From: Candidatus Bathyarchaeota archaeon | GTDB taxonomy: Archaea; Thermoproteota; Bathyarchaeia; 40CM-2-53-6 | Length of the DNA: 64,000 nt | Assembly: GCA_963726255.1 (NCBI GenBank) | Contig: CAVSBL010000002.1 | Span: 352,001-416,000 of the forward strand | Direction of reading: 5' to 3' | Shown: one piece after another, positions 11,072 to 55,026 of the stretch | How the letters are laid out: each line of letters starts with the position of its first letter | Position numbering within the stretch: the stretch's first letter is position 1 | Made by a program: the position numbers and the translations under genes | Notes under the pieces: model-generated | What the model was told of the DNA's origin: nothing | What the model saw: the letters and a program-made list of their open reading frames with translations, nothing else | Database searches by the model: none

Positions 11072-11073
11072 GC

Positions 11074-12855: not shown

Positions 12856-12994
12856 TTGCAGGCGATTGTGAATTGGTCAGCGATCTCTCAAACGCTCTAT
12901 TGATTTGCGTTGGAGGGGCCTTAGTCCTAAATACATCTGACCTAATGGCGCGGGAAACCGTTATTATGATCCCAAACCTTGGGCGTGGAGGAGA

Positions 12995-13276: not shown

Positions 13277-13388
13277 ACATTTCGCATTTCTGCGCCGCTG
13301 CGCCTACATGCGACGACCATAGTCTCCGACCCATCCAAAACATTGTTAATAGACGGCCTCGATAGGCTTCATTTCACCGTGGTCGTCG

Positions 13389-21146: not shown

Positions 21147-22370
21147 TTAGTCCTTGGGTTGTGTGAAGATTGGTTCCTGCAGTTGCTCTTCCTCCGATTC
21201 TCTTTTCAGATAACGTTTCAGGATTTCTGCTTGAATAACCAATGAAATTAGTACTACGCCAAATACCATCGCTGTAATTATGGCCTTGTAATTGCTTTCA
21301 GGTAGCGAGAGCACCAAGGCCACTGAAACGGCTCCTCGCAGTCCAGCAAACGCCAAGACTTTGTTCCATGAACTCGGCAGCCTCTCTCCTAACATGCGTG
21401 TCAATGCGACAATCGGATAGACGCTGAGTAGTCTAGCAACGAGTATCGCGGCAAAAGCCATGATTACGTATGGAGCATAGGCGTATAGCAATTCGATATC
21501 TGTTTTCAAGCCGATGAGTAGAAAGGCGAAGGAGGTTGCCAGAAAAGTCATCACTTCCCAGAAGTGCGTCATGGTTTTGCGGGTTTCCTCCGACATTGCG
21601 GTTTGCATGGTTCGATTCCCTAGCCATAAGCCCGCAATTGGTACGGCAATCAAGCCTGACATGCCTAGACTCTCTGCGATGATGTAGGAGCCGAACATCG
21701 TGAATATCGTGAGAGACGTTTCGGGCAAAGGGTTCGTGATCTGTCTATGGAGCAGTTCACCTATCCCAGCCACCACAAGCCCCACGGCCAATCCTCCTAA
21801 CAACGTGTAGGCGAATAGTCCTAAGTCTCTCATTGGGCTGAATGATAATGTGACGGCGAAGGAATACAAAATGACAGGCGTAGCGTTGTTGAGGTACGCC
21901 TCAGATTCAAGAATCGTGGTCAGTTTTTCTGGGGCGCGCACTATCTTCAAGACGCTCACTACGGTGACTGGGTCAGTTGGCGAAATTATCAAGCCAAACA
22001 GGAGTGCGGCTGCTAAGGGTAATCGAAGAGTGAGGTTGAGGACAAGAGCAGTTGCGAACGCGGATATTATGACTCCGAATATGGCTAGGCCAATGACCGT
22101 CTTATGCACAGTTCTGAATGTCGGAAAACGCGTTCGCATGGCTGATTCAAAGATGAGGGGAGGAACAACCAGACCTAGAATGAGGTCACCGCTGATCGGT
22201 ATGTCGCTGATGCCCCTTCCAAATTTGAGAATTGATAGGGCAAGGCCGATGCCGATCATGACCGTTGGGTATGGTGCCTTCAGTTTATCACTCAGAAGAG
22301 ACGCAACGAACGAAAGAATTATGACTAGCAGCAGGACCGTCAACGGGGAGCTGACAAGCTCAAGCGTCAT
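21147..22370 (-). CDS. nhaP: CPA1-family Na+/H+ antiporter (paralog 2; ND motif changed to NN)
   Basis: PPLIFESA, SPTDPV, ESEAYLNN, GLRGAVSVAL. Confidence 0.9.
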   Translation of the reverse strand: MTLELVSSPLTVLLLVIILSFVASLLSDKLKAPYPTVMIGIGLALSILKFGRGISDIPISGDLILGLVVPPLIFESAMRTRFPTFRTVHKTVIGLAIFGVIISAFATALVLNLTLRLPLAAALLFGLIISPTDPVTVVSVLKIVRAPEKLTTILESEAYLNNATPVILYSFAVTLSFSPMRDLGLFAYTLLGGLAVGLVVAGIGELLHRQITNPLPETSLTIFTMFGSYIIAESLGMSGLIAVPIAGLWLGNRTMQTAMSEETRKTMTHFWEVMTFLATSFAFLLIGLKTDIELLYAYAPYVIMAFAAILVARLLSVYPIVALTRMLGERLPSSWNKVLAFAGLRGAVSVALVLSLPESNYKAIITAMVFGVVLISLVIQAEILKRYLKRESEEEQLQEPIFTQPKD

Positions 22371-27921: not shown

Positions 27922-29130
27922 TCAATTCTTATGCCCGCGAAATACGAGTCGCTGTCTTTTCAGATATACCTGAAGTAGTTCCCCTTGCACTATGAGAGAC
28001 AACAGTGCAACTCCGAAGGTCATCGCGACTATGGCTTCCCTGTGCGGAAAGTTGTTGGGAAGTGAGAGAGCAAGCGCGACTGAAATCACTCCCCTCAAGC
28101 CCGCCGCTGCGAGGATACCTTTCCAGGAGTTCGGAATTCTTTCTCCGATTAGCCCCGCAAGCGTCACGATTGGATAAACGCTGGCCACTCTGGCCAAGAG
28201 TATCGCGATGAACGCGGCAACTATGAACGGAGCAAAAGTAACAAGCAAGGAGGGGTCTACCTTCAGTCCCAAGAGTAGAAAAGCGAATGATGTCACTACG
28301 AACGTGACGACTTCCCAAAACCTTGTCACAGTCGTACGGGTTTCCTTGGACATTGCGGTCCGCATGGTTCTGTTTCCCATATACAGACCTGCTATCGCAA
28401 CCGCAATCAATCCTGAAGCGCCTAGACTTGCAGCGAGAATGAAGGAACCAAACATTACTGCTATGGTGAAGTATGTCTCAGCCAAGGGTTCCGTGACCAA
28501 GCGATAAAGGAGTTCAGCTATTCCAGAGACAACTAGGCCTATTATGACACCCCCTCCGAGAGTATATGCGAACAATGTCGTGCTCTCCAACGGACTGAAA
28601 ATAAGAGAGATAGCAATAGGATACAGGATTACCGCTATAGCATCATTGAAATACGCCTCGGTTTCAAGGATCGTAGTCAGTTGCCTTGGCGCCTTGGTGC
28701 GCTTCAAAAGGCTGACGACCGAAACTGGGTCAGTTGGCGACACAATGACACCGAATGTCAATGCTACCCCAAGAGGCAAACCCAAAGAAATTCTCAAAAC
28801 CAATCCAGTGACGAGAGCAGAGATGATAACACCAAAGATCGCCAGCGACAGCACGGTCCTCCTAGTAGCCTTGAAATCCTTGAAGCGTGTTCGCATAGAA
28901 GCCTCGAAGATCAATGGAGGAACCACCAATCCGAGTATTGTAGATCTGTCAAGTGGAATTGTGCTAAGTCCACCAGCAAGCCTAAACAATGACAAGAAGA
29001 AGCCGATCGCGATCATGACTATGGTGTAGGAGATCCTTAGCTTCGAACTCAGAAGGACTCCTACGAACGACAGAACAATAACGACCAGTACAACCGTCAA
29101 CCACGGCATGGTAGGAGAGAGATCGAGCAC
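27922..29130 (-). CDS. nhaP: CPA1-family Na+/H+ antiporter (paralog 4)
   Basis: PPLIFEAS, SPTDPV, EAYFND, GLRGVISVALAL; long identical stretches with paralog 1. Confidence 0.93.
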   Translation of the reverse strand: MLDLSPTMPWLTVVLVVIVLSFVGVLLSSKLRISYTIVMIAIGFFLSLFRLAGGLSTIPLDRSTILGLVVPPLIFEASMRTRFKDFKATRRTVLSLAIFGVIISALVTGLVLRISLGLPLGVALTFGVIVSPTDPVSVVSLLKRTKAPRQLTTILETEAYFNDAIAVILYPIAISLIFSPLESTTLFAYTLGGGVIIGLVVSGIAELLYRLVTEPLAETYFTIAVMFGSFILAASLGASGLIAVAIAGLYMGNRTMRTAMSKETRTTVTRFWEVVTFVVTSFAFLLLGLKVDPSLLVTFAPFIVAAFIAILLARVASVYPIVTLAGLIGERIPNSWKGILAAAGLRGVISVALALSLPNNFPHREAIVAMTFGVALLSLIVQGELLQVYLKRQRLVFRGHKN

Positions 29131-31174: not shown

Positions 31175-32335
31175 CTAAACCAATCCCCACGTGTGTTCGC
31201 AGTTGCAGTAGCTTTTGCCGAAATCGTGATTGTTTGCGCTGCGATTGTTGCTTTTGAATTTGAAATTCCTGACCGTCGCCGGGTACTCATTGTAGAATAT
31301 CCAAGACCAAATCGGCCCAATGAGGGGTTGCGATATCTTCCAGCAGCATCTCGCGTATGTTGCCATCTCTATGCTAAGCTCAGTTTGACCAGAGGTTGCG
31401 CTCACATTGAATATGGGGAGGCCATTCTCGTAGCGCTTGGTAATCTTAACGTCTTCGAAGGAATACTCCTTCCCCTCCCCGGGGTCGTAGAAGTTGAGCG
31501 TCTTTGAAATCATTCTTTCACCCCAATCCATCGTACTCTCATGGGATATTGAATGTCTGAACATTGGGATACCGATGTGGGGCAAGAAGTATTGTAGGTA
31601 GCCACCATTGTCCCATTGTACTGTGCCCCAATACCAACAGGGGGTTATCGAAGATATTCGCACTTTCTGGAAATACGATCTGCCCTTTACTGGTGTTTCG
31701 ATGTCGCCTACTCGGATCCTTCCCGATGACGACAGTCCCCTGTATTTCAGCATCGAATACCCCATGTTTCCAACGAAATTCTTCCCTGTGGGCAGTAGTT
31801 CCGCCATCACGTCTTTCCATCTCTCCATTGACAGCTCGATTCCGACGTTGTCCGTTTCTATCTTCAGCCAGAAATCCGCGCGGCTTCCGCCGTATGAATA
31901 GACCCCTTTGTGGCCTTCCATTCTGATTCTTCCAGAGTGGTCGTCGCGTTCGGTCTCGGTCTTCCCGTGATCGAGGAGGAGAGGTTCATGCATTCTCTTA
32001 CCGTCATAGTACCAGGAGGCCACCATCGTTTCGAAAGCAGCGTGCTTCCCATTGATTTCCACTGGGATTGTTGGCTCCCAACAATAGTCGTTCACACGGA
32101 CTTTTCTGCAATTTCGGGTGCCCCAAAGGATCATGAGCTGTTTCGGGAATTCGGGGGCATCAGGGTTTTCGAAAAAGTGAATCCACCACCACCAGTGCCA
32201 CGTGCGGTTCTTGAGCATGTTTTCAGGATAGATTCTCCAGATATCATCGAAGACTTTGTGCATGGAGGTCTGCAAATCAGACGGCCTCAGCGTTAATTGG
32301 ATATGTGAACGTTTTGCGGATGTATCGGTTATCAA
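31175..32335 (-). CDS. Conserved-looking Trp/Tyr-rich hypothetical protein (possible AttH/tocopherol-cyclase-like beta fold)
   Basis: 386 aa, TWHWWWWIHFF, V.GRSYFQKV, PCWYWG, EHTWG; fold guess is inference only. Confidence 0.7.
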   Translation of the reverse strand: MITDTSAKRSHIQLTLRPSDLQTSMHKVFDDIWRIYPENMLKNRTWHWWWWIHFFENPDAPEFPKQLMILWGTRNCRKVRVNDYCWEPTIPVEINGKHAAFETMVASWYYDGKRMHEPLLLDHGKTETERDDHSGRIRMEGHKGVYSYGGSRADFWLKIETDNVGIELSMERWKDVMAELLPTGKNFVGNMGYSMLKYRGLSSSGRIRVGDIETPVKGRSYFQKVRISSITPCWYWGTVQWDNGGYLQYFLPHIGIPMFRHSISHESTMDWGERMISKTLNFYDPGEGKEYSFEDVKITKRYENGLPIFNVSATSGQTELSIEMATYARCCWKISQPLIGPIWSWIFYNEYPATVRNFKFKSNNRSANNHDFGKSYCNCEHTWGLV

Positions 32336-32445: not shown

Positions 32446-32967
32446 TTACCTCTGGAGTTCGAAAACGAATTCTTGGGCTCCCGCGAGAACAATCAACGCA
32501 TGCATGGAGCCAGGCGTAGGCGATGAGACGCCTAGGAAAAGCGTAACGAACCCATTAGGCTGAATTGTGGGTAGGTTCCCGCCCCCGGTGAACATGTTCC
32601 AGCGGTAACTAGCCGGGAACACAATATCGTTTGAAGTGATCGAAAGGTTTCCTTGTGGCTTAGCTCCGATAATTGTGGGATCCGTTGGCGATCCAACTGT
32701 TCCTTTTGTGAGTTTCACATTGTCGAAGTAAATTGCAGTTATGTTCAGAGGGCTCGTACCTCTGTTCCATAGCGTGACTGAGACTTGCACGAGATCTCTG
32801 TTGAAATTGTAGCCCACTAATTGCAGGCCCGAGACATCGGGCAACGAGGATTCGAGTGATGAGCGGTGGCTGGTGAGCCATACGGGCACGATCTGAGTTT
32901 GTGTGAAGGCCACCATTATGACGAGGAGTATGAGCGGTGTAATTAGGGCTAAGTGTTTATCGTTCAT
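32446..32967 (-). CDS. Membrane-anchored exported beta-rich protein
   Basis: ATG at 32967 overlaps the upstream stop (ATGA); N-terminal TM, then V.VTL.N.G...LNITAIYFD. Confidence 0.75.
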   Translation of the reverse strand: MNDKHLALITPLILLVIMVAFTQTQIVPVWLTSHRSSLESSLPDVSGLQLVGYNFNRDLVQVSVTLWNRGTSPLNITAIYFDNVKLTKGTVGSPTDPTIIGAKPQGNLSITSNDIVFPASYRWNMFTGGGNLPTIQPNGFVTLFLGVSSPTPGSMHALIVLAGAQEFVFELQR

Positions 32968-33941
32968 TTGTCTTCCTCCATCGTTTTGCCAGCCTTCCAA
33001 ACCCCCACTACTTCCTTCAAGACGAGTGCATATACGCACCACACAGATAGAACAACGATCAAACCCAATGTTACGATGATCAATGAATGGACGGGTAGGA
33101 TACCCGCGAGTCGAAGGTCGACGCTTGGTGCTTGTCCGTTGACGTAAGGGGTCTCAAGGGTTGGTTCGGTTTGCCAAGGCGGAGGATAGAACGAGGTTGA
33201 GGTCTGGCTCTGCAAGTATTGACCGCTGCCGGCAAAGTGTGCTGTCACAACGATTGCTCTAGGGGCAGTCAACGGAAAGGAAAGTTTGGCTGTTCCATCG
33301 GAGCCAGTCGTATTCTGGCCCATCTTCACTGGTCCAAAGTCGCTGCTTACAGAGAATTCCACGATTGCACCAGATATCGGGGCCCCGTTTTTGTTGGCAA
33401 GAAATACTGAGACGGTGATGACATTTCCACGTGCTGCGACATCTAACTGGCTAAGGTTAGTTGAGACGGGTGCTGTCCGCGTTGAAGCGCTCACGACGAG
33501 GAAGCCCTGCTGCAGGTTCTCCATGCCGAAGCATGGAATAATGCAATAAAACTGAAAACTCCCAACTTGACTTGCAGTAAAGTTCACTTCCTGCACCGGT
33601 ATCAGTTTATCAATATTGCCCGTCACAATATTGTATCCGCCAATTATCATCTTGTGAGGGTTATCGAAGGAGAGGTCTTGGTCGGCATAGAGGAACCGGA
33701 TATCGACTCGATCGCCCTGAGTTACCTGAAGGTAGAATGGGTTAGATGAGCCGTTAAACCCTGAGGAGCTGACGAGGACTGTGAAATACCTAACTCCTGT
33801 TTCGTTGCTGCTTGGCGTAAGGTTGAAGACCGTGAGGTTTCCGGAAATGTCCGTTGATAGACCCGGCGGTGCTGTTGCATTTGCGAATTGGAGGATTAAG
33901 AAAAATGTGACCAGCGCAACTAAAGCAACCGTGCCACGCAC
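32964..33941 (-). CDS. Exported cupredoxin + Ig-like domain protein with C-terminal TM anchor
   Basis: Signal peptide, LQVTQGDRV, PH, FTASQVGSFQFYCIIPCFGM, then PISGA.VEF...TTGSDGTA Ig-like repeat, C-terminal helix. Confidence 0.8.
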   Translation of the reverse strand: MRGTVALVALVTFFLILQFANATAPPGLSTDISGNLTVFNLTPSSNETGVRYFTVLVSSSGFNGSSNPFYLQVTQGDRVDIRFLYADQDLSFDNPHKMIIGGYNIVTGNIDKLIPVQEVNFTASQVGSFQFYCIIPCFGMENLQQGFLVVSASTRTAPVSTNLSQLDVAARGNVITVSVFLANKNGAPISGAIVEFSVSSDFGPVKMGQNTTGSDGTAKLSFPLTAPRAIVVTAHFAGSGQYLQSQTSTSFYPPPWQTEPTLETPYVNGQAPSVDLRLAGILPVHSLIIVTLGLIVVLSVWCVYALVLKEVVGVWKAGKTMEEDK

Positions 33942-33942
33942 C

Positions 33943-35871
33943 TTAGAGCGCCTCCATCGATTCTGCGATCTTCATCATCTCGTTAATCGTGCTGTTAGCG
34001 AATATGGCATAACGGACCCCGTTTCTCCACCATTGAAGTTGGCCAGGCTCAATTACACCACCCGAGACTTGGCTTGGCTCTCTTGCGAAGCCAATGTTTC
34101 CCGCGACATTAACTCGTGTAAATTCAGATGGCAAATAGGCTGGAGAAGTGACATTAAGCGAGTCCTCCGCTTGGATGATGACGAATGCTACATCTTCACT
34201 GTACAGGGAAAGTGGCCTAGTCAACGGATTCTCGTAAATTAACGACACGATATGATCGTCTCCGGAAACCCTCACATCCTTCAGCTGGCTTCCTAGCGGA
34301 AATTCAATTGGCTTTGAAATTGAGAACCCGACAGTTTTCCTTGCTTCGGCGAGCGAGACACTTAGTCCGAGGTTCGACAAAGGCACTACAGGTATGGAAG
34401 AACGATTTCCGTTCGAGTTCAGTGATTTAATTGGAAGTTGTATTGGAGCAAATCCCAATGCGAAACCCGCGATTGCAAGTGATCCGTATTTCAGAAAGCT
34501 TCTCTTGGACACAGCGATTGACGATTTAGGCTTAGTTTGCAGTGCCAACCCAGTTGACTTTGCCGAGAAAGCTGTTGCACTTGTCTCACTTGGCTCTTGT
34601 GTTTCCCAGATTGAGATTACCGGGAACAGGTGACTGAAGGTGAGGTAGATGAGAGTGAAACCCGCGAAGGTGCCGGCGACAATCGAGAGTTCCACCCAAG
34701 TCGGTACGTACGATCCCGATGAGTAACTTAGCTGTGGAAGAGCTAGAGTTGGTACAATAATGTTGAAGCGTTCAATCCACATCCCAACGTCGACAAGCAG
34801 AGATGCGACGAGATATCCGGTTAGAGTTCTTGTGCGAGGTAGCCCTATCAGAAATGCTGGAATCACGAGTCCGCCGATGAGTTGAACCCAGAAGAATGTC
34901 GCGTACTGACCCCAGAGCAGGGACGCCATCCATTGTCCTTCAGGGCTTGATGAATCGAAGAACTTGTAACCGGGGACAAGATTCTCGTTTATCGTGAAGT
35001 AGATGACGATGATGTCAAGGGCTATCAGGAGTTTTCCGAGATTATCAAAGTGGCGTTTTGTTATATAGGCGTCTAAATGGTAGAACTTGGTGAGAAAAGC
35101 CATCACCAAAATTACGGTTGCTACGCCAGACAACAATGCTCCCGCCACGAAGTAGGGGCCGAATATTGTGCTGTTCCAACCCGTCCTGAACAGCATTGCA
35201 AAATCCCAAGATACGACCGTGTGTACCGAGATGGCGATGGGTATAATGATGATCGACATCATCTTAATCGCCTTCTCAAGGTGACTCCACTGGTCAGATG
35301 AACCGTTCCAGCCTAAGGAGAGCCTCCCGTAAAGCCACCTGCGAAACTTAGACGCGTCTTCCAATTTGTCCCTGCATGATGCGATGTCTGGAATCATAGG
35401 GAGATACAAGAAGATGGTGCTCCCGATCATGTAAGTCCCGATTGCCATAAAGTCCCAAGTTAACGGGGACTGAAGTCTAGCGAACACAATCGTGTTCAAC
35501 AATCTATCTGGCCTTCCGAGATCGGTTAGTGGCATCATGACCGCCATCATCAATGACGCGAAGGTGACTATTTCGGCAATCCTAGTGATTGGTTTCCTCC
35601 ATTCCGCGTTTGTGAGTCGAAGGATTGCGGACATCAAGGCGCCGACATGGCTTATGCCTATGAAGAAGACGAAGTTGATTATGTAGAACGCCCATGACAC
35701 GACGGACCTCATTCCCGTAACTCCCAGTCCAGTCGTCACCTGGACATAGTATGCGTAAACCCCCCACAGAGCAACGGCGAGAAGCGAGCTTCCTAGGGCA
35801 TAGGAGGACGAAGAGTGGTTCTTGACTGGTCCGAAAAGTATGTCGCTCTTCGAGGTCGAACTTGAGCTCAC
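33943..35871 (-). CDS. nrfD: NrfD/PsrC/ActC-family quinol-interacting membrane subunit with long C-terminal extension
   Basis: GLGVTG...WAFYI.NFVFFIG.SH.G, PITRIAE, DLGRPDR, SPLTWD, SVHTVVSWDFA, GW.STIFGPYFV.GA, GMWIERF.I. Confidence 0.92.
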   Translation of the reverse strand: MSSSSTSKSDILFGPVKNHSSSSYALGSSLLAVALWGVYAYYVQVTTGLGVTGMRSVVSWAFYIINFVFFIGISHVGALMSAILRLTNAEWRKPITRIAEIVTFASLMMAVMMPLTDLGRPDRLLNTIVFARLQSPLTWDFMAIGTYMIGSTIFLYLPMIPDIASCRDKLEDASKFRRWLYGRLSLGWNGSSDQWSHLEKAIKMMSIIIIPIAISVHTVVSWDFAMLFRTGWNSTIFGPYFVAGALLSGVATVILVMAFLTKFYHLDAYITKRHFDNLGKLLIALDIIVIYFTINENLVPGYKFFDSSSPEGQWMASLLWGQYATFFWVQLIGGLVIPAFLIGLPRTRTLTGYLVASLLVDVGMWIERFNIIVPTLALPQLSYSSGSYVPTWVELSIVAGTFAGFTLIYLTFSHLFPVISIWETQEPSETSATAFSAKSTGLALQTKPKSSIAVSKRSFLKYGSLAIAGFALGFAPIQLPIKSLNSNGNRSSIPVVPLSNLGLSVSLAEARKTVGFSISKPIEFPLGSQLKDVRVSGDDHIVSLIYENPLTRPLSLYSEDVAFVIIQAEDSLNVTSPAYLPSEFTRVNVAGNIGFAREPSQVSGGVIEPGQLQWWRNGVRYAIFANSTINEMMKIAESMEAL

Positions 35872-36686
35872 GTACTTGTACCTCCTCTGGGTGGAAGGTA
35901 TAGGACGCTTGGGCTCGTGCCCAACTCATCTTTGAACCGGTAAGCCCCTCTTCCCTGAATCATGGTGCTCAATCTGGCAGTATCTACACCATTGCTCACA
36001 ACATCCTGAGCCGCATCACCGAACCAAAGCGCCTTCATTCCTGCCCTTGTGCAGGCTTCAACACAGGCAGGCACCATACCCATCTTGGTTCGATGTCTGC
36101 ACCAGACGCATTTTTCAGCAACGCCTCTCCTGTGAGGGATGTTGTAATCAGGCGAATATGGTATCTTCTTCTCCTCTTCGGTGACCGGAGGATCGTACCA
36201 GTTGAAGAATCTCCGCTCATAGGGACATGATGCTAGGCATATTCTGCAGCCTATGCATCTATTTTGATCTATCAGTACGATGTTGTCTTCGCTATAGTAA
36301 GTCGCCCCGACGGGGCAGACTTTTGTGCAGGGCGAATTCTGACAGTTCTGACAAGGAACTGGCATGTGGGTCCCGTCAGCGAGATCGAAGACTTGTATCC
36401 ATGGCTGCTTGCCCTCATAGTTTGGCTCTCCCCAAGCAGGTGGGACGTGCATCTCCGTGTGACAGCCTTCGGTGCATTTTCTACAGCCGTCACATTTGTC
36501 CAGGTCAATTACCCAGATGTATCGTCTTCCAGGTTCATTCCCTGTAGCCTCATTTCCCGGCGCTTGTGAACTGACGGGCTCGAACCCATTTAGAAGAGAA
36601 GAAAATACGAAACCGGCCGTAGCGATGGCCGTGCCCTTCAGCAATTGCCTACGCTCAACCTTCAATCGTTTCCTCGACATTATCAT
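35868..36686 (-). CDS. nrfC: Tat-exported 4Fe-4S dicluster protein (NrfC/PsrB/ActB2-like)
   Basis: ERRQLLKG signal; CDGCRKC...C, CQNC...PC..VCP, CIGCRIC..SCPY, KCVWC...PACVEAC. Confidence 0.93.
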   Translation of the reverse strand: MIMSRKRLKVERRQLLKGTAIATAGFVFSSLLNGFEPVSSQAPGNEATGNEPGRRYIWVIDLDKCDGCRKCTEGCHTEMHVPPAWGEPNYEGKQPWIQVFDLADGTHMPVPCQNCQNSPCTKVCPVGATYYSEDNIVLIDQNRCIGCRICLASCPYERRFFNWYDPPVTEEEKKIPYSPDYNIPHRRGVAEKCVWCRHRTKMGMVPACVEACTRAGMKALWFGDAAQDVVSNGVDTARLSTMIQGRGAYRFKDELGTSPSVLYLPPRGGTST

Positions 36687-36741
36687 TCCTCAAGGAAACA
36701 TGAGAGCGCGATCATAATTCTCTGACTTCATTGATCTGATG

Positions 36742-37376
36742 TTACCCGACAATTACGTATCCATTCATGTAACCTACGAGCCCCATTCCCGGTCCGCAAG
36801 GAGTCTCACACATGTACTCGTACACTCCTGGTACGATGAAGGTATACGTGAAGGTGACAATCGTGTCTGGAGGTATCGGGATGTCAATGTTGAGGCTGAG
36901 AACAGAGAATGTGTGGCTTATCTCAAGTGGAGAAATTGCTTGTCCTTGAGAGTAATGAGATACGACCTGTCCGCTATCGGTGTTATTGTAAATAGTGAAC
37001 TCTACCGAAGCGTTGCCTGTGTAGTTTTCGAGGACTGCGGTATCTAAGTTGGTAATTACGAATGTAACTGGGACACCCAACGGTATTGTTAGATTGTTGT
37101 TACTTGGTCCTGGACCGGATGCGTTCGTTCCTCGCGGGGTGCGGTACCATTTGCATACGAGGGGATTATGAATGCGTCGTAGCCGCCTCCACCCCAATCA
37201 GGAACGATATCAAGATTGACTACTTTCACGGGCGCGGATTCAACGGGTAGGCTTACACTCGTTGTCTGAGATGGGGTTTTAGCTCCGAATGAATTCATGC
37301 TTCCCCCAATCCAGCCCGCGGTAAGGCCCATCAACAGAATTCCGATAAACAGGACAGCCTCTAGTGAGCTCCTCAA
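36742..37376 (-). CDS. Membrane-anchored cupredoxin (sulfocyanin/oxidase-subunit-II-like), split by a single-base frameshift
   Basis: ORF 37089-37493 gives the TM anchor and VPDWGGGGYDAF; ORF 36742-37197 gives SHTF and PGVYEYMCETPCGPGMGLVGYM; one extra C in the C4 run (37136-37139) would join them. Start uncertain. Confidence 0.75.
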
Positions 37377-37491
37377 TCTGCTGTAACGCCTCTCGCTGCG
37401 GCAACCGAGAGTGAACCCTGCTGGAATCTGACTTATATGGGAGAGCACGTTTTCCAACAATGACTTCCAGGTTTGGAAATCAGGTTTTCTC

Positions 37492-37854
37492 ATGCGAGTA
37501 GACGATGAGGATCACAAGAAGGCGGTGATCCGGACCTTGTTGGATGATCACTCAAGGCTAATACTGCTATCGTCTATGCTCGTTCCTAAATCGGTGGTTG
37601 ACATCACACGCGAGCATAGTATTCCAATGACATCCGCTTATAGGAAGGTTAAGGAGCTCAAAGAGTTCGGGTTGCTGAAAGTCGACCGCATTGTGTTGAC
37701 CGAGGATGGCAAGAAGTACGAGCTGCTAAAGAGCACGATACGATCGGCTAGTGTCCAATTCAGCAAGGGGATGTTGGACGTGGATGTAACGGCAAACGTC
37801 GAAGCAGACGAGAAACTCGTGAAACGGTTCTTTGCACTTAAAGAGGTGAAATGA
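37492..37854 (+). CDS. Winged-helix (ArsR-like) transcriptional regulator
   Basis: L.D.HSR.IL, PKSV.DI.RE..IP.TSAYRKV.EL.E.GLL, EDGKK. Confidence 0.88.
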   Translation: MRVDDEDHKKAVIRTLLDDHSRLILLSSMLVPKSVVDITREHSIPMTSAYRKVKELKEFGLLKVDRIVLTEDGKKYELLKSTIRSASVQFSKGMLDVDVTANVEADEKLVKRFFALKEVK

Positions 37855-38132
37855 CGATGCAAGAAATCTACATACTTCGATCCTTCAAACTAGTAATAGT
37901 TCTTCTGGGCGCCGTCCTAATCTATTTGGGACTCAAGGGTTACCGTCGGAACCAAAGCCAGGAAATGATATTCTTAACGCTCGGATTCGCGCTGATTACC
38001 GCAGGCTCAGTCGCGGCAGGCGTGCTGTTCGAATTCCTTGGATTCCAACTGGTTGACGTAGAGATAGTGGAGTCTGCAATGGTCATCCTCGGGTTCGCTT
38101 CATTGATTTACTCAATTTATGGATTCGACTGA
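37851..38132 (+). CDS. Small 3-TM protein (type found beside ArsR-like regulators in haloarchaea)
   Basis: ATGA overlap with regulator, GAGGTGA ribosome site; GYRR...M..L..GF.LIT.G, VES....GF...IYSI. Confidence 0.8.
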   Translation: MTMQEIYILRSFKLVIVLLGAVLIYLGLKGYRRNQSQEMIFLTLGFALITAGSVAAGVLFEFLGFQLVDVEIVESAMVILGFASLIYSIYGFD

Positions 38133-38400
38133 CTTGACTGATCTCTTCGAATTTGCAAGCTTCCTTCTCATGCTCTACACAGCTGGAATTTCACTCTACA
38201 TTACCAAGCGAGCAACACGAGTGGGCTGGCGTTACCTCTTCCTCTCCTTTTTGTTGTCTTTGATGGTTCTTTTCCATGGCTTTCATCATCTCTTCGCCTT
38301 CATCGAGTACCCGTTCATGGAGCAAGCTTTCGAATTCGGTGCATCAGTTTCAGCGCTTTCCCTAGCGGTCGTCTACGTTTACGTGTGGAGCCATGGCTGA
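38119..38400 (+). CDS. Small 3-TM protein with HGFHH motif
   Basis: Overlaps previous gene by 14 nt; three hydrophobic helices. Confidence 0.72.
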   Translation: MDSTDLTDLFEFASFLLMLYTAGISLYITKRATRVGWRYLFLSFLLSLMVLFHGFHHLFAFIEYPFMEQAFEFGASVSALSLAVVYVYVWSHG

Positions 38401-38686
38401 AACAATGTCGCAGTTGATCGCTCAGGCCACATTAGTCATATTTACATTAGCTGCATTGGTCTTCGCATTCCAAGCTATTCGCCAAAGAAGAGCAAGGGAG
38501 CTTTCGCCATCGAGTTTCCCAACCCTTCTCCTTCTGATGATAGTTGGCTGGATAGCTACGGAAGGGGTCACTGACGCTAGCGGAACTTCACTTGGAGCAG
38601 CAGGAGAATGGGCACACCTAGCAGTGATGGCCCTATTTGCCGCAGCTATAACCTTGCAATTGAAGCGCTCCCGTAAGGAAACCTAA
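38393..38686 (+). CDS. Small 3-TM protein with WIATE / EWAH motifs
   Basis: Overlaps previous gene by 8 nt; three hydrophobic helices. Confidence 0.72.
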   Translation: MAETMSQLIAQATLVIFTLAALVFAFQAIRQRRARELSPSSFPTLLLLMIVGWIATEGVTDASGTSLGAAGEWAHLAVMALFAAAITLQLKRSRKET

Positions 38687-38881
38687 ACAGTCTCAACTTT
38701 TGCGACGAAGTTGCATAAAGCGTGCACAAGACATGATTCTTGACCTACGAGACCTCACGGAGGCGTCCTAAAGGTTCCTTTTCGGTTGGGGAAGAGTATT
38801 CGCTAATGCTTCGTGTCGAGGGAGCTGGAAGTCAAGCACACGACTTATCTTCTGGTTGACCTCGACGTATCGCGGTTGACA

Positions 38882-39214
38882 TTGCACAAAGTGAACGTGA
38901 GTATTGTGCCCGATGCTCCTGTTACGGAGGAGGATTCTAAGGGAGCAAGGATAAAGTGGCTCATCAATGAGAAGGATGGAGCTCCGACCTTCCTAATGCG
39001 CCAGTTCACTGTTGAACCAGGAGGCTTCACTCCTTATCACAAGCACGACTGGGAGCACGAGGTGTATATCCTCGAAGGCCAAGGCAAGGTTCGATACGAA
39101 GGCCGCGAAGAGCGAATCCAACCGGGGGACGCCATCTTGATTCCGCCTGGCAAGACGCATCAATTCCAAGCTGGTGCAGAGACGTTGAAGTTCCTCTGCC
39201 TAGTGCCCAAATGA
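38882..39214 (+). CDS. Cupin domain protein
   Basis: DGAPTF.MRQF...PGG.TP.H.H.WEHEVYILEG, IPPG..HQF; likely TTG start at 38882. Confidence 0.9.
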   Translation: MHKVNVSIVPDAPVTEEDSKGARIKWLINEKDGAPTFLMRQFTVEPGGFTPYHKHDWEHEVYILEGQGKVRYEGREERIQPGDAILIPPGKTHQFQAGAETLKFLCLVPK

Positions 39215-39265: not shown

Positions 39266-41344
39266 TTACTGGCTCCTTAGAGTCATTGATTCGAGTGGGA
39301 TAGGTGTTTCGCGTAGTCTTTTCCCCACAATCTTCTCTATCGCCCGTATTGCCGCGGGTGGAACACCCATGGTCGGGCTCTCTCCTACTCCCTTCGCCCC
39401 GTGTGGAAGAGGGGATGGGATGTTGGCAAGTTTGACAACGACATTAGGCATTGTCAATGCACTTGGTATTCCTGCGTCTGCTATGGTAGCCGTTAGGAGC
39501 TGTCCATCTTCGTTGTACTTCGCCTCTTCAGTCAACGTTTGACCTATGCCCTGCGCAGATCCGCCAATGACTTGGCTCTCAATCATGGCCGGGTTAAGCG
39601 CTCGACCAACATCATAGTAAGCGATGCATTCTTTCAATCTCACAGTTCCAGACTTGTCTAGGTAGGCTGTTACGAGGTTCGCCCCGAACGCGTTCAGCTG
39701 ATCCTTCTGAGAAGTGAAAACTGTCACATCGAACTCGTGCCTCAACAGATCTTCAGGGGAGTACTTTCCAAGTCTCGTGGCGGCCTCATTCTTGATCTTC
39801 CGTGACGCTTCAACGAGCGCCGCTCCTCCTACAACTGTTGTTCTGCTCCCCCAGGTTCCCACACCTTCGTTCAGTTCGTCGGTATCAGACTTCTCGACTT
39901 CGATAACGGATTGAGGAACGCCCAGCTCCTCACTCACCAGGATTCGGGCGAACACGTCGTGCCTCTGCCCATGCGAGCTGCCTCCCATCCACACCTTGAC
40001 CCTCCCCTGCTTCACGGCGATTCTGGCGGATTCTCCAGGCTGCGCGGCTGGGATGAGTACGAAGCACGAGAAGCCAACACTCTCGCTTTCCCTTATGTCA
40101 TAATAACCCAGCTCCTTCACCGCAGATTCAAGAAATGGTTTGAAGGGATCAAGCTTCAGACCGAGCGGAGAAACAAACGAGTCGGCACTTGCATTTCTTA
40201 GCCTCACTTCCACGGGATCCATTTTCAATTCGTCGGCAACAAGGTCCATCATTCGTTCGATGAACATGGCCGCTTCGGGTCTTCCAGCCCCTCTGTAGGG
40301 ACCCAGCGGAACCTTGTTAGTGTACACCGATTTCGCGTCAACAAAAACGTTCTGAATCGCGTACGGTCCAGTTATCTGAAACCCTATCCACCTTGGAGCA
40401 AACTCCCCCATGCCATGAGCGTAAGCGCCTGCATCTATCAGCAGCTCAGTCTTCAGGCCGAGGACCTTCCCTGTCCTATCTGCGAAGATTCTCATCTTCG
40501 CTCGGGCGCCTCTACCTTGATTTGTCGCTGTCAAGTGTTCCATGCGAGTCTCAATCCACTTCACAGGTCTTCTCGTTTTCATAGAGGCGTGGCATGCGAT
40601 CACGTATTCTGGGTAGCTGTCTCCCTTGCTGCCAAATGCGCCCCCAGTGTCCATCTGAATGACTCTCACTGAACGCGGGCCTAGTCCCAGCGACTCGCAC
40701 AACCCCTCTTTCCATGAGTACACAGACTGGGTTGAAGCCCACACAGTAAGCCGCGAACCGTCATAGTGCACCACAATTCCTCGAGGTTCCAACGGGTTGG
40801 GGGATATTCTCCTATTCAACAACGTGTCTTCAAGAACGAGAGGCGCGTTGGGCAGATTGAATTCCTTCCCAAGTTGGAAGGCTGCGAGGATGTTCGAGTC
40901 CGTTCCCGGATGGATCGGGGGTGAGACGAGCGCTTCTTCCGGGTCGATTACAGGATTCAAAGGCTCGTAGTCTACTTCCACCTCGTCCATCGCATCGACG
41001 GCTTTGTACAAATCCTCCCCTAACACAGCTGCGACAGGTTGGCCAACGTAATTCACGTAATCCGCGGCAAGCACAGGCAGGATAGCTCCGGATCCCTCTG
41101 AGGCTCCCTCCCCCACCGAAGCCATAGTTGCCTTGAGTTCTGAATGATTGATTCCGCCCTTGACCTTGAGCAGTTTAGCTCGTGCGTGAGGACTGCGCAC
41201 AATCGCCAAATGTAACATGTGGGGCAAGCGGAGGTCGCTTACGAACTGCCCGCGCCCTTCGACAAGTTTCCTTGACGAGTCTTCCATAGAGACCAGCTTG
41301 CCTGATGCTATCAATAACTCTTCGGCGGGTGCTCTATCCGACAA
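39266..41344 (-). CDS. coxL: Xanthine dehydrogenase family molybdopterin subunit (CoxL/CutA-like; not form I CODH)
   Basis: RSPHARA, GGAFGSK, RPVKW.E.R.E, PYRGAGRPEA, GTWGSR, GAKGVGE; probable start TTG 41314. Confidence 0.9.
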   Translation of the reverse strand: MSDRAPAEELLIASGKLVSMEDSSRKLVEGRGQFVSDLRLPHMLHLAIVRSPHARAKLLKVKGGINHSELKATMASVGEGASEGSGAILPVLAADYVNYVGQPVAAVLGEDLYKAVDAMDEVEVDYEPLNPVIDPEEALVSPPIHPGTDSNILAAFQLGKEFNLPNAPLVLEDTLLNRRISPNPLEPRGIVVHYDGSRLTVWASTQSVYSWKEGLCESLGLGPRSVRVIQMDTGGAFGSKGDSYPEYVIACHASMKTRRPVKWIETRMEHLTATNQGRGARAKMRIFADRTGKVLGLKTELLIDAGAYAHGMGEFAPRWIGFQITGPYAIQNVFVDAKSVYTNKVPLGPYRGAGRPEAAMFIERMMDLVADELKMDPVEVRLRNASADSFVSPLGLKLDPFKPFLESAVKELGYYDIRESESVGFSCFVLIPAAQPGESARIAVKQGRVKVWMGGSSHGQRHDVFARILVSEELGVPQSVIEVEKSDTDELNEGVGTWGSRTTVVGGAALVEASRKIKNEAATRLGKYSPEDLLRHEFDVTVFTSQKDQLNAFGANLVTAYLDKSGTVRLKECIAYYDVGRALNPAMIESQVIGGSAQGIGQTLTEEAKYNEDGQLLTATIADAGIPSALTMPNVVVKLANIPSPLPHGAKGVGESPTMGVPPAAIRAIEKIVGKRLRETPIPLESMTLRSQ

Positions 41345-41347
41345 ATC

Positions 41348-41354
41348 TTTAAAA
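41348..41354. promoter_or_regulatory. Candidate bidirectional TATA box TTTAAAA
   Basis: The most TATA-like run between the divergent TTG starts at 41314 and 41385, roughly equidistant. Confidence 0.45.
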
Positions 41355-41384
41355 CGCTTCTTCGGTCTGCCCAGAAGAACAACT

Positions 41385-42257
41385 TTGCGTCCCAGGCCCT
41401 TCGAATACTACGCCCCATCCACCGTGAACGAAGCATTGACTCTTCTCTCCTCCAAAGAGGAAGCGAAGGTATTGGCAGGCGGGCAAAGTCTCGTCACCCT
41501 CATGAAGCTCCGTCTCGCAGCTCCCAAGGCTCTGATAGACATCAACGGAATCACGGAACTAGCGCACATACGTGAAGAAGGCGGAGTAATCGCTGTCGGT
41601 GCCCTGACTCGCTATGATCAACTTTCAGAGAGTAGCTTGATCCGTGAAAAGGTGCCCTTGCTCGCAGAGGCTGCGAGTATGGTTGCTGATCAGCAAGTCA
41701 GAAACCGAGGAACCATAGGAGGGTCACTGGCACACGCCGATCCAAGCGCTGATCTTCCAACGGCATGCACGGCCGCCGACGCGAAGATAGTCACAATGAG
41801 TCTCAATGGCTCGCGGTCGATAGAAATGTCAGATTTCTTCCGTGACTACTTCATAACCGCGCTTAGAGAGGACGAGATTGTCAAGGAAGTGAGAATTCCC
41901 ATTCCTCCTCAGCGATCAGGATCCGCATACCTGAAACTCACCAGGGGACACAACGATTTCGCAATCGTTTCCGTAGCGACTCAACTGACGGTCGACAACA
42001 ACCACCTGTGTCAAGCTGTGAATGTAGTCTTTGGAGGTGTTGCTCCCGCCCCCCTGCATGCGAAAGAGACTGAAATACTGCTGAAGAACCGCAAACCCGA
42101 CGAGAACTTGCTCAATGAGGCAGCTCAGGTCGCAGCAAACGGGTTGAGCCCAACTTCTGACATTAGGGCATCCGCCGACTACAAATTAGAGATGGCCAAG
42201 GTTCTGACGAAGAGGGCGCTCAAAACATCATTAGATCGGGCGATGGGAAGTGTTTGA
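41385..42257 (+). CDS. coxM: FAD-binding subunit (CoxM/CutB-like)
   Basis: [42 protein letters not shown]; start moved to TTG 41385. Confidence 0.92.
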
Positions 42258-42744
42258 CTTGACGAACGAATCGACGATTAGCGTGAGAGTGAATGGTAAG
42301 CAGTATCGGCGCAGAATCGAATCTCGTATGTTACTCGTCGACTTTCTTCGCGATGAGTTGGGTCTGACTGGTACTCACATTGGGTGTGACACAGGTCACT
42401 GCGGCGCCTGCACCGTTCTAATGAATGGCGTGACCGTCAAGTCATGTCTGCTACTCGCAGCCCAGGCCAACAATGCTGACATTCAGACAATCGAAGGTCT
42501 AGCAGTTGAAAATGAGTTGCATCCAATTCAGGAAGCGTTCCTTGAACATAATGCTTTGCAGTGTGGTTACTGTACGCCGGGAATGATACTCTCAAGCCTA
42601 TTCCTGCTCGAGAGAAACCCGAACCCGAGCGACGAAGAGATCAGGAGGGGTATCGACGGAAATCTCTGTCGATGCACGGGTTATCTGAACATCGTGGAAG
42701 CTGTCAAGGCTGCGGCTTTCAAGATGAAGCGAACCGGCACTTAA
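42250..42744 (+). CDS. coxS: 2Fe-2S subunit (CoxS/CutC-like)
   Basis: [29 protein letters not shown]. Confidence 0.95.
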
Positions 42745-42808
42745 GCCGTCTTTGTCTAAACTCTCGTAACGCACTGCGGGTTCAATCGCAAACTGGGCGA
42801 GCACGGGC

Positions 42809-43267
42809 TCATTCAAGCTGTATCTTCACGCACTCGAAGACTCCCGTCACGGTCTTATTCGCGGTATCCTTCATCATTCGTTGTCCGAGGCCAGCCATCA
42901 TACCGCCCACCTTTACGTCTGATTTGTAGGAAATCGCACTTCCTCCAGGAATTTCCTTAAGCTCAATCGTGGTGTCCAAATTGATGCTGCCCCCTGAACC
43001 GCTGCCGACCGCCTTGAGTCGTACATGACTTATTGGTTGCTTGTCCACAATTTCGATTCTGAATTTGAAGTCTGCCCTTATAGGCCCGACTCCGACGCGG
43101 ATGATCGCGGTAAACTCGTTCTCATTTTCGACGTCCAAACTCTTGAGATCGGGTAGGCACCTGCCCATTGTAGTAGGGTCAGTGATGAATTCCCATAGCT
43201 TTTCTCGCGGCGCAGTGAACTCATAGGTTCCTTCGGTAATCATGCCCAATCCTTCACGAGGCACCAT
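42809..43267 (-). CDS. coxG: CoxG/SRPBCC accessory protein
   Basis: APRE.LW.F.TDP....CLP, VGVGPI, V.VGG.MA.LG.R. Confidence 0.88.
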   Translation of the reverse strand: MVPREGLGMITEGTYEFTAPREKLWEFITDPTTMGRCLPDLKSLDVENENEFTAIIRVGVGPIRADFKFRIEIVDKQPISHVRLKAVGSGSGGSINLDTTIELKEIPGGSAISYKSDVKVGGMMAGLGQRMMKDTANKTVTGVFECVKIQLE

Positions 43268-48588: not shown

Positions 48589-50474
48589 TTAGCGTCCTGC
48601 GGTTATGAATTTCTCTAACTCAGTTTCCGAGTTATCCGCGGTTATGAATATGGGGACATTCTCCATCCCAGTCGCGATATAGCTAGAAAGCAACCATTGG
48701 CCAGGAGCAAATTCTAGTGTCTTCTCAAGAATACTCTGATCAATTGTGAACGTGCTGCTCACTAGGCTTCGGTCATAAGGCCGCGGTAGGGGACCTACGA
48801 AGTATGTGTGCAATTGTTGCAAGGCGTTCGTGTTGAGGTACGCAATTCTCTGAGTTGCGACGCATCCACCCAACCCATACTTTCTTCCTTGTCTTAGTAA
48901 TGTCTCTATGCGCTGTGTGCAAGTCGAGTCTATCCCCCTCGCCTTCTCGTAGGCCGGAATGAACTCTTGAGCCTCATCAAAGACGAAGAGAACCTGTGGA
49001 TCGACCTGAAATTCGCGCTTCCTGTGCCGCAACATGTCGGAGGTCAGCGTGATGGCCAGCTGTTTAATTACACTGGGTTCCGCGATTGAAAGACACAAAA
49101 GCCTCACGTCGCCTTCGAGAAGCTGGGCTATTCTTTCACTCCCGAAAGATTTGTCATCTTTCACTTTCTCTTCGGGTTCAATGAGTGTTGCGAGTTCAGA
49201 TCGTGTTGAAGCCCACGCGTAGAGCCCACTGTTCTTCCACACCCTGAACCTGTCAAGAATGCTTAGCGCCTCAGTTTGCAAGTATTCAAGAAACGGCTGC
49301 GTTACGGTCTGTGAACGTTCCGCATGCTTGTCCTTGACCCATTGCAACACCTTAAGCCTGATCTGGTTAATCGCGTTTAGATTTACTGCCTTCTTTACAT
49401 CGTCCATGGCCAGGAGCTTGATTTCTTCAAGTATGTCTTCATAGGCTGGTGGATGTTCGCTTCCTTCCGCAAATGGCCCACACGCCCCATCGCGAGAATC
49501 GACTTCAAAGTCGGCGTGACGTCCGCTTTTTCGAACTTTCTTGGAGTCACGATGATCTTCCTGAAATGTTCAGCGTCCGCGATGGGGACCTCGGTAATTA
49601 TCTTGCTGCTAATCGACCTATCAGAAAAGACGTCCTGAAGCAGGAAAGGATACTCCATCGAGATGTCGAAGATGACAACTTTAGTTGTCTTCGTGTGGTA
49701 CATTATCCTTCGTAGGATGTTGGAGACTAGGTTGCTCTTTCCACCACCCGTGAAAGAGAAGATCCCGAAGTGATATCTGGCCAGCCTTTCGAAGCTGACG
49801 TAGATTGGAATCCGGTCCTTCTCCTCTTGGAACATTTTGATTACGCCAATCCTTGGGTCTTTACGGGCTTCAGCAATGGTTGAGATTCTATTCTCGTTCC
49901 AAGTTAGGCCAAGTTCTTCGAGCAGTCGTCGGTTGTACATCCTGTGAATGGTGTTCTTGCTTAGGATGAATACGCGTTCACCCACAATTGGATAGGTGAA
50001 GCCTTTCAGATACTCTTGGTCAAGGCCGGACAGAATCAAATCATAGTTGAGGGGAATGGCCGCTAGTTGGATCATCATGGTTGCCTTATCGTCTGTATCC
50101 CAGTCTGAGACACTCTGTTCGATTATCTCAAATTGGTAGGGGTAGTAGCTCTGGTCGGAGAGCCCTCTTAGTCCGAAGTGCTCTGGTCCGATGCGCGAAA
50201 TTTCGAGGAGCGTGAAGCGGTTGCCGTCGTGTTTCTTTGCTTTGAAGTTGCGCACCGCCAGCAGCATACCCTCTTCGAGAAGGCCCATCAAGTCTTTCTG
50301 GTACTGTGCTTTCACACGGCATTCGTATTTTGCTGAGAAGCCTGTCGTCTCAGCCGAAAGCTCAGCTCGTCTTATGGCCAAAACTGCCGATAATCTCGCA
50401 TCGAACCGATTGTCCAGGTCTGTGAAGTGGCGATTAAGCTCTTCTTGCACTTTCGACTTCGCTCCTTCTTGCAC
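48589..50474 (-). pseudogene. herA: HerA-family ATPase split by a -1 frameshift (pseudogene or sequencing error)
   Basis: 5' ORF has HAS-like region, HFGIFSFTGGGKSN (Walker A) and IFDISMEY; 3' ORF has FVFDEAQEF (Walker B) and RQGRKYGLG...ATQR; the two frames overlap stop-free between about 49395 and 49565. Confidence 0.85.
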
Positions 50475-54931: not shown

Positions 54932-55026
54932 GAAAGTGACCCACCGGAGCTAATTTGGTTTCGGTTGATTTCCATCAGGTCTATCGTTCTTTAAGGCGGA
55001 ACAACATTATCCATTGTCACTTCGAG

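Follow-up and report, generated by a model that had tools for sequence, protein, structure and literature searches.

A candidate quinol:cupredoxin oxidoreductase of the NrfCD type encoded by a five-gene cluster of a Bathyarchaeia archaeon

Organization of the gene cluster

We analyzed a stretch of 64,000 nucleotides (nt) from a Candidatus Bathyarchaeota archaeon (GenBank assembly GCA_963726255.1, contig CAVSBL010000002.1, positions 352,001 to 416,000), which we call the window, and in particular a cluster on its minus strand, at positions 32446-37376, that is a candidate for a membrane complex linking quinones to copper proteins. The cluster comprises five co-oriented genes arranged head to tail. 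From 5' to 3', they encode a cupredoxin (Cup1, 36742-37376), a ferredoxin of the NrfC type exported by the twin-arginine (Tat) route (272 amino acids, aa; 35868..36686), the membrane protein NrfD (642 aa, 33943-35871), a second cupredoxin joined to an immunoglobulin-like (Ig) domain (CupIg, 325 aa, 32964..33941), and a fifth protein of 173 aa (32446..32967). This last one is exported or anchored, has one N-terminal transmembrane (TM) helix, is rich in beta structure and was assigned to no family; homologues occupy the same position in two of the related loci described below, L001 (43% identity) and, with a weak match, L002 (E 8e-4).

The Cup1 gene is separated from nrfC by a gap of 55 nt, and from there on the genes are practically contiguous: nrfC and nrfD overlap in GTGA, nrfD and cupIg are separated by a single nucleotide (TAA G GTG), and cupIg overlaps the fifth gene in ATGA. 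An earlier sequence-only reading of this DNA had described five co-oriented, tightly packed genes, the last four joined by overlaps or a 1-nt gap, and both the coordinates and the minus strand are borne out. It had also stated that the cluster has neither a CxxCH haem motif nor a molybdopterin catalytic subunit, which likewise holds: the motif occurs in none of the five products and in none of the 66 open reading frames (ORFs) of at least 80 aa in the window, and Pfam and NCBIfam agree that there is no molybdopterin oxidoreductase (PF00384) in the cluster. Among the 61 of these 66 ORFs that were scanned, we found no haem-copper oxidase, Rieske protein, cytochrome b or cytochrome c maturation protein, no DsrMKJ or QrcAB partner genes, and one NrfD only, that is, no second PF03916 protein of the ActF kind. 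The scans for sigma-70 promoters and for terminators, neither of them suited to archaea, gave 5 (7.3 expected) and 8 (6.6 expected) hits, respectively.

The NrfD and NrfC subunits

NrfD matches PF03916 over residues 51-376 with 110.7 bits (cutoff 25.8; E 1.5e-31). At E<=1, its matches in the PDB are limited to ActC (four chains, 1.3e-64 to 3.3e-58) and ActF (three chains), and PsrC is not among them. Judged by its sequence, the protein is ActC-like, and the motifs SVHTVVSWDFA and STIFGPYFV, which had been pointed out as resembling ActC, are indeed present and align with 'svhsvvsfdfa' and 'tifppyfv' of that protein.

The ten-helix core shared with ActC (residues 1-430, 34582..35871) contains the residues of the quinol site and of the proton paths. 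The residues that Table 2 of PMC8076601 gives for ActC were mapped by hand onto NrfD through the HMMER alignment to chain 6f0k_C. By that table, three of the four residues of the quinol site are identical (Ser135, Asp140 and Asp223 of ActC), and the fourth, His139, is replaced by Asp117; some relatives of the window protein have His here, and Asp is, according to PMC8076601, the state of DsrP, Qrc and Hyb. On the N side, the proton path retains 12 of 13 ActC residues (Thr100 is replaced by Ala), and on the P side 4 of 6 (Tyr323 is replaced by Thr and, in a poorly aligned stretch, Glu338 by Gln), which amounts to 16 of the 19 path residues in the list.

Residues 430-642 of NrfD (33943..34581) form a C-terminal extension that is common to the archaeal homologues of 640 aa and includes, besides a Tat-like motif inside the chain (S-[KR]-R-x-F-L), one more TM helix, the eleventh, and a domain of roughly 150 aa. 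The domain has no conserved Cys or His in the alignment and matches DUF4367 weakly (E 0.0056, below the cutoff). Since ActC ends on the cytoplasmic side, according to PMC8076601, the domain of NrfD that follows one more helix should be extracellular. This domain and the fifth protein, which are without conserved redox ligands, are probably structural.

The sequence-only reading had recognized NrfC as a Tat-exported iron-sulfur (FeS) protein, and the protein indeed carries the twin-arginine motif RRQLLKG and 16 Cys in four Cys4 motifs, corresponding to four clusters, of which 15 are invariant in the 12 rows of the alignment. Its Pfam matches are Fer4 domains only (Fer4_11 with 56.5 bits, cutoff 26.2, E 3.4e-15), and its matches in the PDB are PsrB (3e-25) and ActB (2e-24). 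In the NrfC of locus L001 (552-1361), the second Cys of the third motif, Cys147, is replaced by Thr, the other 11 rows having Cys; by analogy with alternative complex III (ACIII), that protein may carry a 3Fe-4S cluster. With the NCBIfam models, all scores are below the cutoffs (in parentheses): NrfC reaches 173 bits with DsrO (200) and 134 with QrcC (400), and NrfD 120 bits with DsrP (350) and 54 with QrcD (570).

The two cupredoxins

The sequence-only reading had taken the first cupredoxin as one gene; in fact, a 1-nt frameshift divides it between two ORFs in different frames, one with the TM anchor and linker (37089-37493) and the other with the cupredoxin domain (36742-37197). The N-terminal part (37138..37376) begins at a TTG codon at 37376, has one TM helix (residues 5-23) followed by the linker, and aligns with the N-termini of the homologues P0157, P0159 and P0160; the C-terminal part (36742..37137) is a CuA-type cupredoxin domain with the pattern H…C-x3-C-x3-M-x5-M. 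The break lies at 37136..37139, a run of four C where the intact homologues imply five. P0157, P0159 and P0160 (213 aa, 86-92% identical) are continuous across it (…ANGTAPPRGTNAS…), as are intact homologues with 208-213 aa, in which …GTAPPRGT… spans the break, and the copy in L001 is a single continuous frame. Either the assembly is wrong at this point, or the gene carries a genuine mutation that makes it a pseudogene. No such break affects the remaining four genes, which share 85-97% identity with relatives of equal length, and a check for a second frameshift as a sign of assembly quality, which took in coxM and a short Usp ORF (7641-7979), found coxM intact.

As a single sequence, Cup1 matches Pfam Cupredoxin_1 with E 7e-4, below the cutoff. 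Its family profile finds the CuA domain of the Thermus ba3 oxidase as the best PDB match (E about 1e-6), with the His and the two Cys in register and a Met at the position of the second His. H75, C110, C114, M118 and M124 are conserved in all 121 rows of the alignment.

CupIg begins with a signal or TM segment, which is followed by a cupredoxin head and a Big_1-like Ig domain, and ends in a C-terminal TM anchor; it has eight N-x-S/T sequons for N-glycosylation. The ligand pattern of the head is H96, C133-x3-C137-x2-M140, Q144. We followed these positions in 76 rows, namely the window protein and 75 representatives at the 50% identity level, each of at most 625 aa, that were kept from the 150 best matches once 75 giant Big_1 repeat proteins had been dropped. 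H96, C133 and C137 are present in 76/76 rows; at position 140, 45 rows have His, 30 have Met and one has Asn; and 58 rows have Q144. The full-length profile retrieves 14118 representatives at E<=1e-3, a count that is inflated because its Ig part also picks up the giant Big_1 repeat proteins. Searched with the profile of the head alone, the PDB gives matches to an extra cupredoxin domain in a copper nitrite reductase (3e-8), to the NosZ CuA domain (1e-6), to auracyanin A (7e-6) and to the CuA domain of ba3 (2e-4).

The cupredoxin fold is thus supported for both proteins by profile matches to solved cupredoxins (3e-8 to 2e-4 for CupIg, about 1e-6 for Cup1). The two families also align with each other on the His and the Cys-x3-Cys (hhalign E 3e-4, probability 39%), and for this reason we regard Cup1 and CupIg, from their sequences, as relatives of CuA domains with a non-canonical set of ligands, and not as ordinary blue copper proteins. 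Neither has the canonical CuA motif His…Cys-x3-Cys-x3-His-x2-Met, Cup1 having H…C-x3-C-x3-M-x5-M and CupIg H…C-x3-C-x2-M-x3-Q, and we infer from the conserved ligands that both may bind copper.

Related loci and their exchangeable heads

From 589 confirmed relatives of NrfD, we obtained 80 related loci; in 15 of them, of high GC content, NrfD was located by tblastn and lists of plus-strand ORFs. The neighbourhoods were typed by tblastn with queries for each module, by ORF lists and by Pfam on flanking ORFs, and a quick maximum-likelihood tree, rooted at the midpoint, was built from 93 NrfD cores (those of the 80 loci, that of the window and 12 database proteins, all of them kept).

According to tblastn, 26 of the 80 loci have a molybdenum (Mo) subunit of 730-840 aa and cytochromes with four or five haems; all five Mo subunits that were scanned have molybdopterin oxidoreductase domains in Pfam, with multihaem cytochromes alongside. 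These 26 loci fall on one side of a branch supported at 98 by the Shimodaira-Hasegawa-like approximate likelihood ratio test (SH-aLRT), and because they form a separate clade, the Mo and multihaem subunits are not displaced partners of the window cluster, an alternative that had been raised along with the sequence-only reading. The NrfD of the window belongs to a group of eight archaeal rows (support 100), and the three members of this group whose genomic context is available, namely the window, L001 and L002, all have CupIg.

The 54 loci without a Mo subunit are spread over at least eight phylum labels, and in at least 36 of them the protein encoded after NrfD is Ig-like and has a C-terminal helix. 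The motif of this helix, [VI]W.[TS][YF], is kept whatever the N-terminal head of the protein, which can be a cupredoxin, a monohaem cytochrome c, a DOMON domain, or nothing at all. Cupredoxin heads occur in 10 loci (L001, L002, L003, L006 and L045 in archaea; L009, L022, L024 and L078 in Chloroflexota; and L043), and the monohaem cytochrome c head, in the order cytochrome c-Big_1-TM, in six loci of Chloroflexota. Four archaeal loci (L008, L054, L055 and L058) have the DOMON head, in the order DOMON-Ig-TM, and two others (L007 and L077) have a DOMON protein upstream of nrfC instead. The Ig subunits without a head are followed by a separate cytochrome c in eight loci and by an EB_dh haem-b protein in four, directly in L005 and L016 and about 5 kb downstream in L021, L011 being cut off.

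In all 10 loci with CupIg, its gene comes directly after that of NrfD. Their records are labelled Bathyarchaeia, archaeon HR01, Thaumarchaeota/Nitrosopumilales (three), Chloroflexota (four) and Symbiobacterium (one metagenome-assembled genome, MAG), so the arrangement is not restricted to archaea. Since the order NrfC-NrfD-CupIg recurs in 10 of 80 loci, in both archaea and bacteria, it is more than a chance arrangement, and the doubt whether the cupredoxins would be syntenic elsewhere is settled in favour of synteny. No Mo subunit was detected in these 10 loci by tblastn, or among the flanking ORFs of the subset scanned with Pfam. Hidden Markov models (HMMs) of the two cupredoxin families have hits no farther than 3.5 kb from NrfD in 16 of the 54 loci without Mo and in none of the 26 with it, a contrast that does not amount to a statistical test because the loci are phylogenetically related.

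In one locus, L024, a single protein combines cytochrome c, cupredoxin and Ig (Big_1) domains. In the tree, this locus is sister to the clade of cytochrome c-Ig loci (99 SH-aLRT), and the next to branch off are the cupredoxin loci L009 and L078 (83); judging from this sequence and its placement it looks like a replacement of the head caught midway. Extra small cupredoxins lie beside NrfC in L001, L002, L009 and L078, and in L054, L007 and L033; divergently oriented ones are found in L045 and L006, and others in a clade of the Armatimonadota type (L013, L023, L037 and L070).

Some individual loci have features of their own. In L073 (6682-11065), from a MAG of Terriglobia, NrfC is preceded by a cupredoxin of 138 aa with the canonical CuA loop C-x3-C-x3-H-x2-M; its NrfD, of 679 aa, is extended at the C-terminus by a segment with the anchor-helix motif at its end, and after it comes a pentahaem protein. 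In L043, the locus of the MAG labelled Symbiobacterium, a copper P-type ATPase of the CopA type (HMA and E1-E2 domains; 10993-13278, minus strand) adjoins the genes for NrfC, NrfD, CupIg and a cytochrome c. In L045 (10558-17105 and 509-2770) and L006 (2034-6038 and 10612-11869), which are groundwater MAGs labelled Nitrososphaerota, NrfC-NrfD-CupIg lies amid genes for EB_dh proteins and beta-propellers of the pyrroloquinoline quinone (PQQ) type, with a plastocyanin-type gene upstream; these two may encode a dehydrogenase system at the outer face of the membrane that is connected with the quinone pool.

Proposed function and alternative explanations

The cluster would encode a membrane complex that joins the quinone pool to copper proteins at the outer face of the membrane, and in the simplest model NrfD, NrfC and CupIg belong to one complex. 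The outer-face site of the ActC-like NrfD would oxidize quinol, and the electrons would then run through the four FeS clusters of the exported NrfC to the CuA-like centre in the head of CupIg. This head would be kept in place beside NrfC, where its chain of clusters ends, by the Ig-like stalk and the C-terminal helix. As the redox head is exchangeable, it is most likely the point at which electrons leave or enter. From there they would pass to Cup1, an N-terminally anchored carrier of the CuA type, and on to a terminal oxidase encoded elsewhere; with the head and the second carrier both of the copper type, the wire from quinol to oxidase would be free of haem. The retention of the ActC proton-path residues suggests that turnover is coupled to proton movement. 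Seen directly are the genes that the cluster has, their homologies, the conserved pattern of ligands, the synteny and the swapping of heads between relatives; copper occupancy, subunit contacts, the direction of the electrons, their acceptor and the coupling to protons are what we infer. The sequence-only reading had proposed a minimal quinol:cupredoxin oxidoreductase in which copper proteins replace the c-type cytochromes. The first part agrees with the composition of the cluster and with its evolutionary logic (an ActC-like NrfD, neither haem c nor Mo, and the exchange of heads), and the second with the fact that, in relatives, the same Ig stalk and anchor slot holds a cytochrome c or a DOMON domain; on the whole, the proposal is partly supported.

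We consider it quite probable that a quinone-to-copper membrane complex exists, and we give a probability of about 55% to its being a quinol:cupredoxin oxidoreductase that works in the quinol-oxidizing direction. Several observations weigh against the latter. The NrfD tree was made by a quick method and has several long branches; the 64-kb window has no genes for a terminal oxidase, Rieske/cytochrome b proteins or quinone biosynthesis among the 61 of 66 ORFs scanned; Cup1 is frameshifted, and therefore the second carrier of the chain may be missing here; in Pfam, the window proteins score under the curated cutoffs for both cupredoxin and Big_1; and some features suit the opposite direction. 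The best NCBIfam models, DsrO/DsrP and QrcC/QrcD, although all below cutoff, belong to quinone-reducing complexes; Asp117 occupies the position of ActC His139, as in the DsrP/Qrc/Hyb state given in PMC8076601; in L045 and L006, NrfC-NrfD-CupIg is surrounded by EB_dh and PQQ-propeller genes, as would suit a flow of electrons into quinone; and EB_dh genes come directly after the Ig subunit in L005 and L016 and about 5 kb further downstream in L021. These are the grounds for the main rival, which we think unlikely: the same complex reversed, as a cupredoxin:quinone oxidoreductase in which outer-face donors would deliver electrons through copper and FeS centres to the quinone pool, the ActC-type path supplying protons or using the membrane potential as in Qrc or DsrMKJOP. 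However, no dehydrogenase gene adjoins the cluster in the window, L001 or L002, and NrfD is far closer to ActC, a quinol oxidizer, than to QrcD (E 1e-64 versus 54 bits). In addition, CuA and type-1 copper centres have potentials of about +200 mV or higher, well above that of menaquinone, and transfer from cupredoxin to menaquinone would for this reason run uphill.

The remaining alternatives question the module itself and leave the direction aside. The presence of a molybdopterin subunit and multihaem cytochromes in 26 of the 80 related loci, and a view of the genome that is here restricted to 64 kb, might suggest an incomplete NrfCD module whose true catalytic partner, either an enzyme with the molybdenum bis-pyranopterin guanine dinucleotide cofactor (Mo-bisPGD) or a multihaem cytochrome, lies elsewhere, with the cupredoxin-like proteins as accessory or unrelated neighbours. 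This we hold to be improbable, for the Mo loci branch apart as a clade of their own (98 SH-aLRT), neither tblastn nor Pfam on those flanking ORFs that were scanned reveals a Mo subunit in any of the 10 CupIg loci, CupIg always comes directly after NrfD, with frames that overlap or nearly abut in the window, and in relatives cytochrome c or DOMON heads fill the very slot of CupIg. We attach slightly less probability still to the idea that the cupredoxin folds are metal-free structural domains, comparable to ActB1 with its molybdopterin fold devoid of cofactor, or that the locus is decaying here. The Pfam scores below cutoff, the absence of the canonical second CuA His from both window proteins and the frameshift in Cup1 would be in line with it, but the His and the two Cys are invariant in CupIg (76/76 rows) and Cup1 (121/121), and the substitute residue of CupIg is His or Met, both of them copper ligands, in 75 of 76 rows. 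As to decay, the other four genes are not only intact but match same-length relatives at 85-97% identity, and the break falls in a homopolymer, a frequent site of assembly errors.

Other genes in the window

Divergent from the cluster, on the plus strand, a regulator of 120 aa resembling TrmB/HTH_20 and a membrane protein of family DUF7521 (37492..38132), identified with Pfam, are possibly associated with it: the same pair flanks the cluster in L001 (5482-6122), and L003 has a helix-turn-helix (HTH) protein upstream of its cluster. The regulator may be dedicated to the cluster and perhaps responsive to metal. Two more small membrane proteins, one with the sequence HGFHH, complete this divergent set (37492-38686).

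Beyond it, 2 kb upstream of the cluster and separated from the small membrane-protein genes by a cupin gene (38813-39214), there is a molybdenum hydroxylase of the CoxL/xanthine dehydrogenase (XDH) family (39266-41344, minus strand), followed on the plus strand by a CoxM-like FAD subunit, a CoxS [2Fe-2S] subunit and CoxG, the set from CoxL to CoxG spanning 39266-43267. CoxL was considered as the missing Mo subunit and rejected, since it belongs to the wrong family (XDH/CoxL, PF02738) and to another transcription unit; the family is cytoplasmic, and the unit is separate and divergently arranged. On the other side, 110 nt downstream of the cluster and on the same strand, a Trp-rich ORF of 386 aa (31175-32335, minus strand) has no match in Pfam or NCBIfam. 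It was discarded as a member of the cluster for lack of synteny, with no matches in the 80 related loci.

The region 635-29130 is dense in genes for ion homeostasis: three paralogues of a Na+/H+ exchanger (11656-12855, 21147-22370 and 27922-29130), a P-type cation ATPase, a ClC channel with CBS domains, MscS, a TMEM175-like K+ channel, and an Nramp transporter adjoining a repressor of the DtxR type. Formiminotransferase-cyclodeaminase, FolD and 5-formyltetrahydrofolate cyclo-ligase are adjacent at 53384-56521 and form a cluster of folate one-carbon metabolism. At 48589-52290 (minus strand), a protein with a HerA-type ATPase domain (49395-50474) overlaps an ORF of 618 aa and precedes one of 272 aa, both without a match in Pfam. 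The whole window (1-64000) has no tRNA gene according to ARAGORN and no Rfam family at the gathering score.

Novelty and significance

NrfCD modules have been described as anchors for molybdoenzymes or haem proteins. A 2021 review of the NrfD family, in whose text the words copper and cupredoxin occur zero times, lists 15 types of complex and reports ActC and ActF from bacteria only. We found no description of an NrfCD-cupredoxin complex in the full-text literature, a scope that lies outside subscription journals and supplements, and PMC10833072, on Nitrososphaeria that do not oxidize ammonia, has no mention of any of six relevant terms. The cluster, a variant of the NrfCD/ACIII kind, is therefore widespread and apparently undescribed; the sequence-only reading had seen in it a candidate for an undescribed system.

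If our interpretation is correct, a copper-wired NrfCD module would explain how quinol is linked to the oxidase in some archaea without c-type cytochromes, it would provide copper biochemistry with a new set of CuA-like ligands, and the cupredoxin, cytochrome c and DOMON heads on one scaffold would be a natural series in which to study the exchange of electron-exit modules in respiratory complexes. A broader view, which we advance only tentatively and hold to be somewhat less than an even chance, is that of a third, copper-only solution for quinol oxidation beside bc1 and ACIII: a proton-motive NrfCD with a new CuA-type exit centre, in which Met takes the place of one His, belonging to a family that crosses domains, with interchangeable heads (cupredoxin, cytochrome c and DOMON haem b), and standing in for complex III in archaea free of haem c.

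Comparison with known systems

Of the known systems, ACIII (ActABCDEF; 6f0k, 6btm, 6lod, 8k9e) shares with the cluster an ActC-like NrfD with its ten-helix core and an outward-facing FeS protein, NrfC resembling the B2 domain of ActB. However, the window cluster lacks the pentahaem ActA, the monohaem ActE and a second NrfD-like protein such as ActF, and its NrfC of 272 aa has no counterpart of the molybdopterin-like B1 that is fused to the FeS domain in ActB (about 1000 aa). It adds, in turn, two CuA-type cupredoxins, the Ig-stalk subunit and the C-terminal domain of NrfD. Of five features considered for membership in ACIII, the ActC-type NrfD is the one present, and four are absent. By its sequence, the cluster thus resembles ACIII in how its membrane core works, yet it is not ACIII.

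Clusters with Mo-bisPGD, NrfC, NrfD and multihaem subunits (the 26 loci, e.g. L029 and L047), whose NrfD is 45-50% identical to ours, and PsrABC (2vpw) have in common with the window cluster a homologous NrfC-NrfD pair and the FeS wiring at the outer face. The former differ in their PF00384 subunits and cytochromes with four or five haems, neither of which the window cluster has, and in the latter PsrC is absent from the matches of the window NrfD at E<=1. The DsrOP and QrcCD proteins of sulfate reducers provide the best NCBIfam models and likewise, by PMC8076601, an Asp at the quinone protonation position, but the scores are below the cutoffs and the genes of DsrMKJ and QrcAB, whose products are haem proteins, are missing here. 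From gene content and sequence comparison, the cluster is not a Psr/Ttr/Dms, Dsr or Qrc complex.

Among CuA proteins, Cup1 is like subunit II of haem-copper oxidases (Thermus ba3) in having its His and Cys-x3-Cys in register and in consisting of one TM helix and a cupredoxin domain, and CupIg matches the CuA domain of N2O reductase (NosZ). Both differ from CuA in their ligands, Cup1 by a Met for the second His (121/121 rows) and CupIg by a His or Met one position earlier (C-x3-C-x2-H/M) and a Gln replacing the CuA Met, and neither is attached to a catalytic domain of an oxidase or of NosZ. A further parallel is auracyanin, the acceptor of the ACIII of Chloroflexus and, in its A form, one of the PDB matches of the CupIg profile (7e-6), since there, too, a cupredoxin takes electrons from an ActC-type quinol oxidase. 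The difference is that auracyanin is a separate substrate downstream of the haems, whereas here the cupredoxins are encoded within the operon, one of them in the slot of a subunit, with no haem in between.

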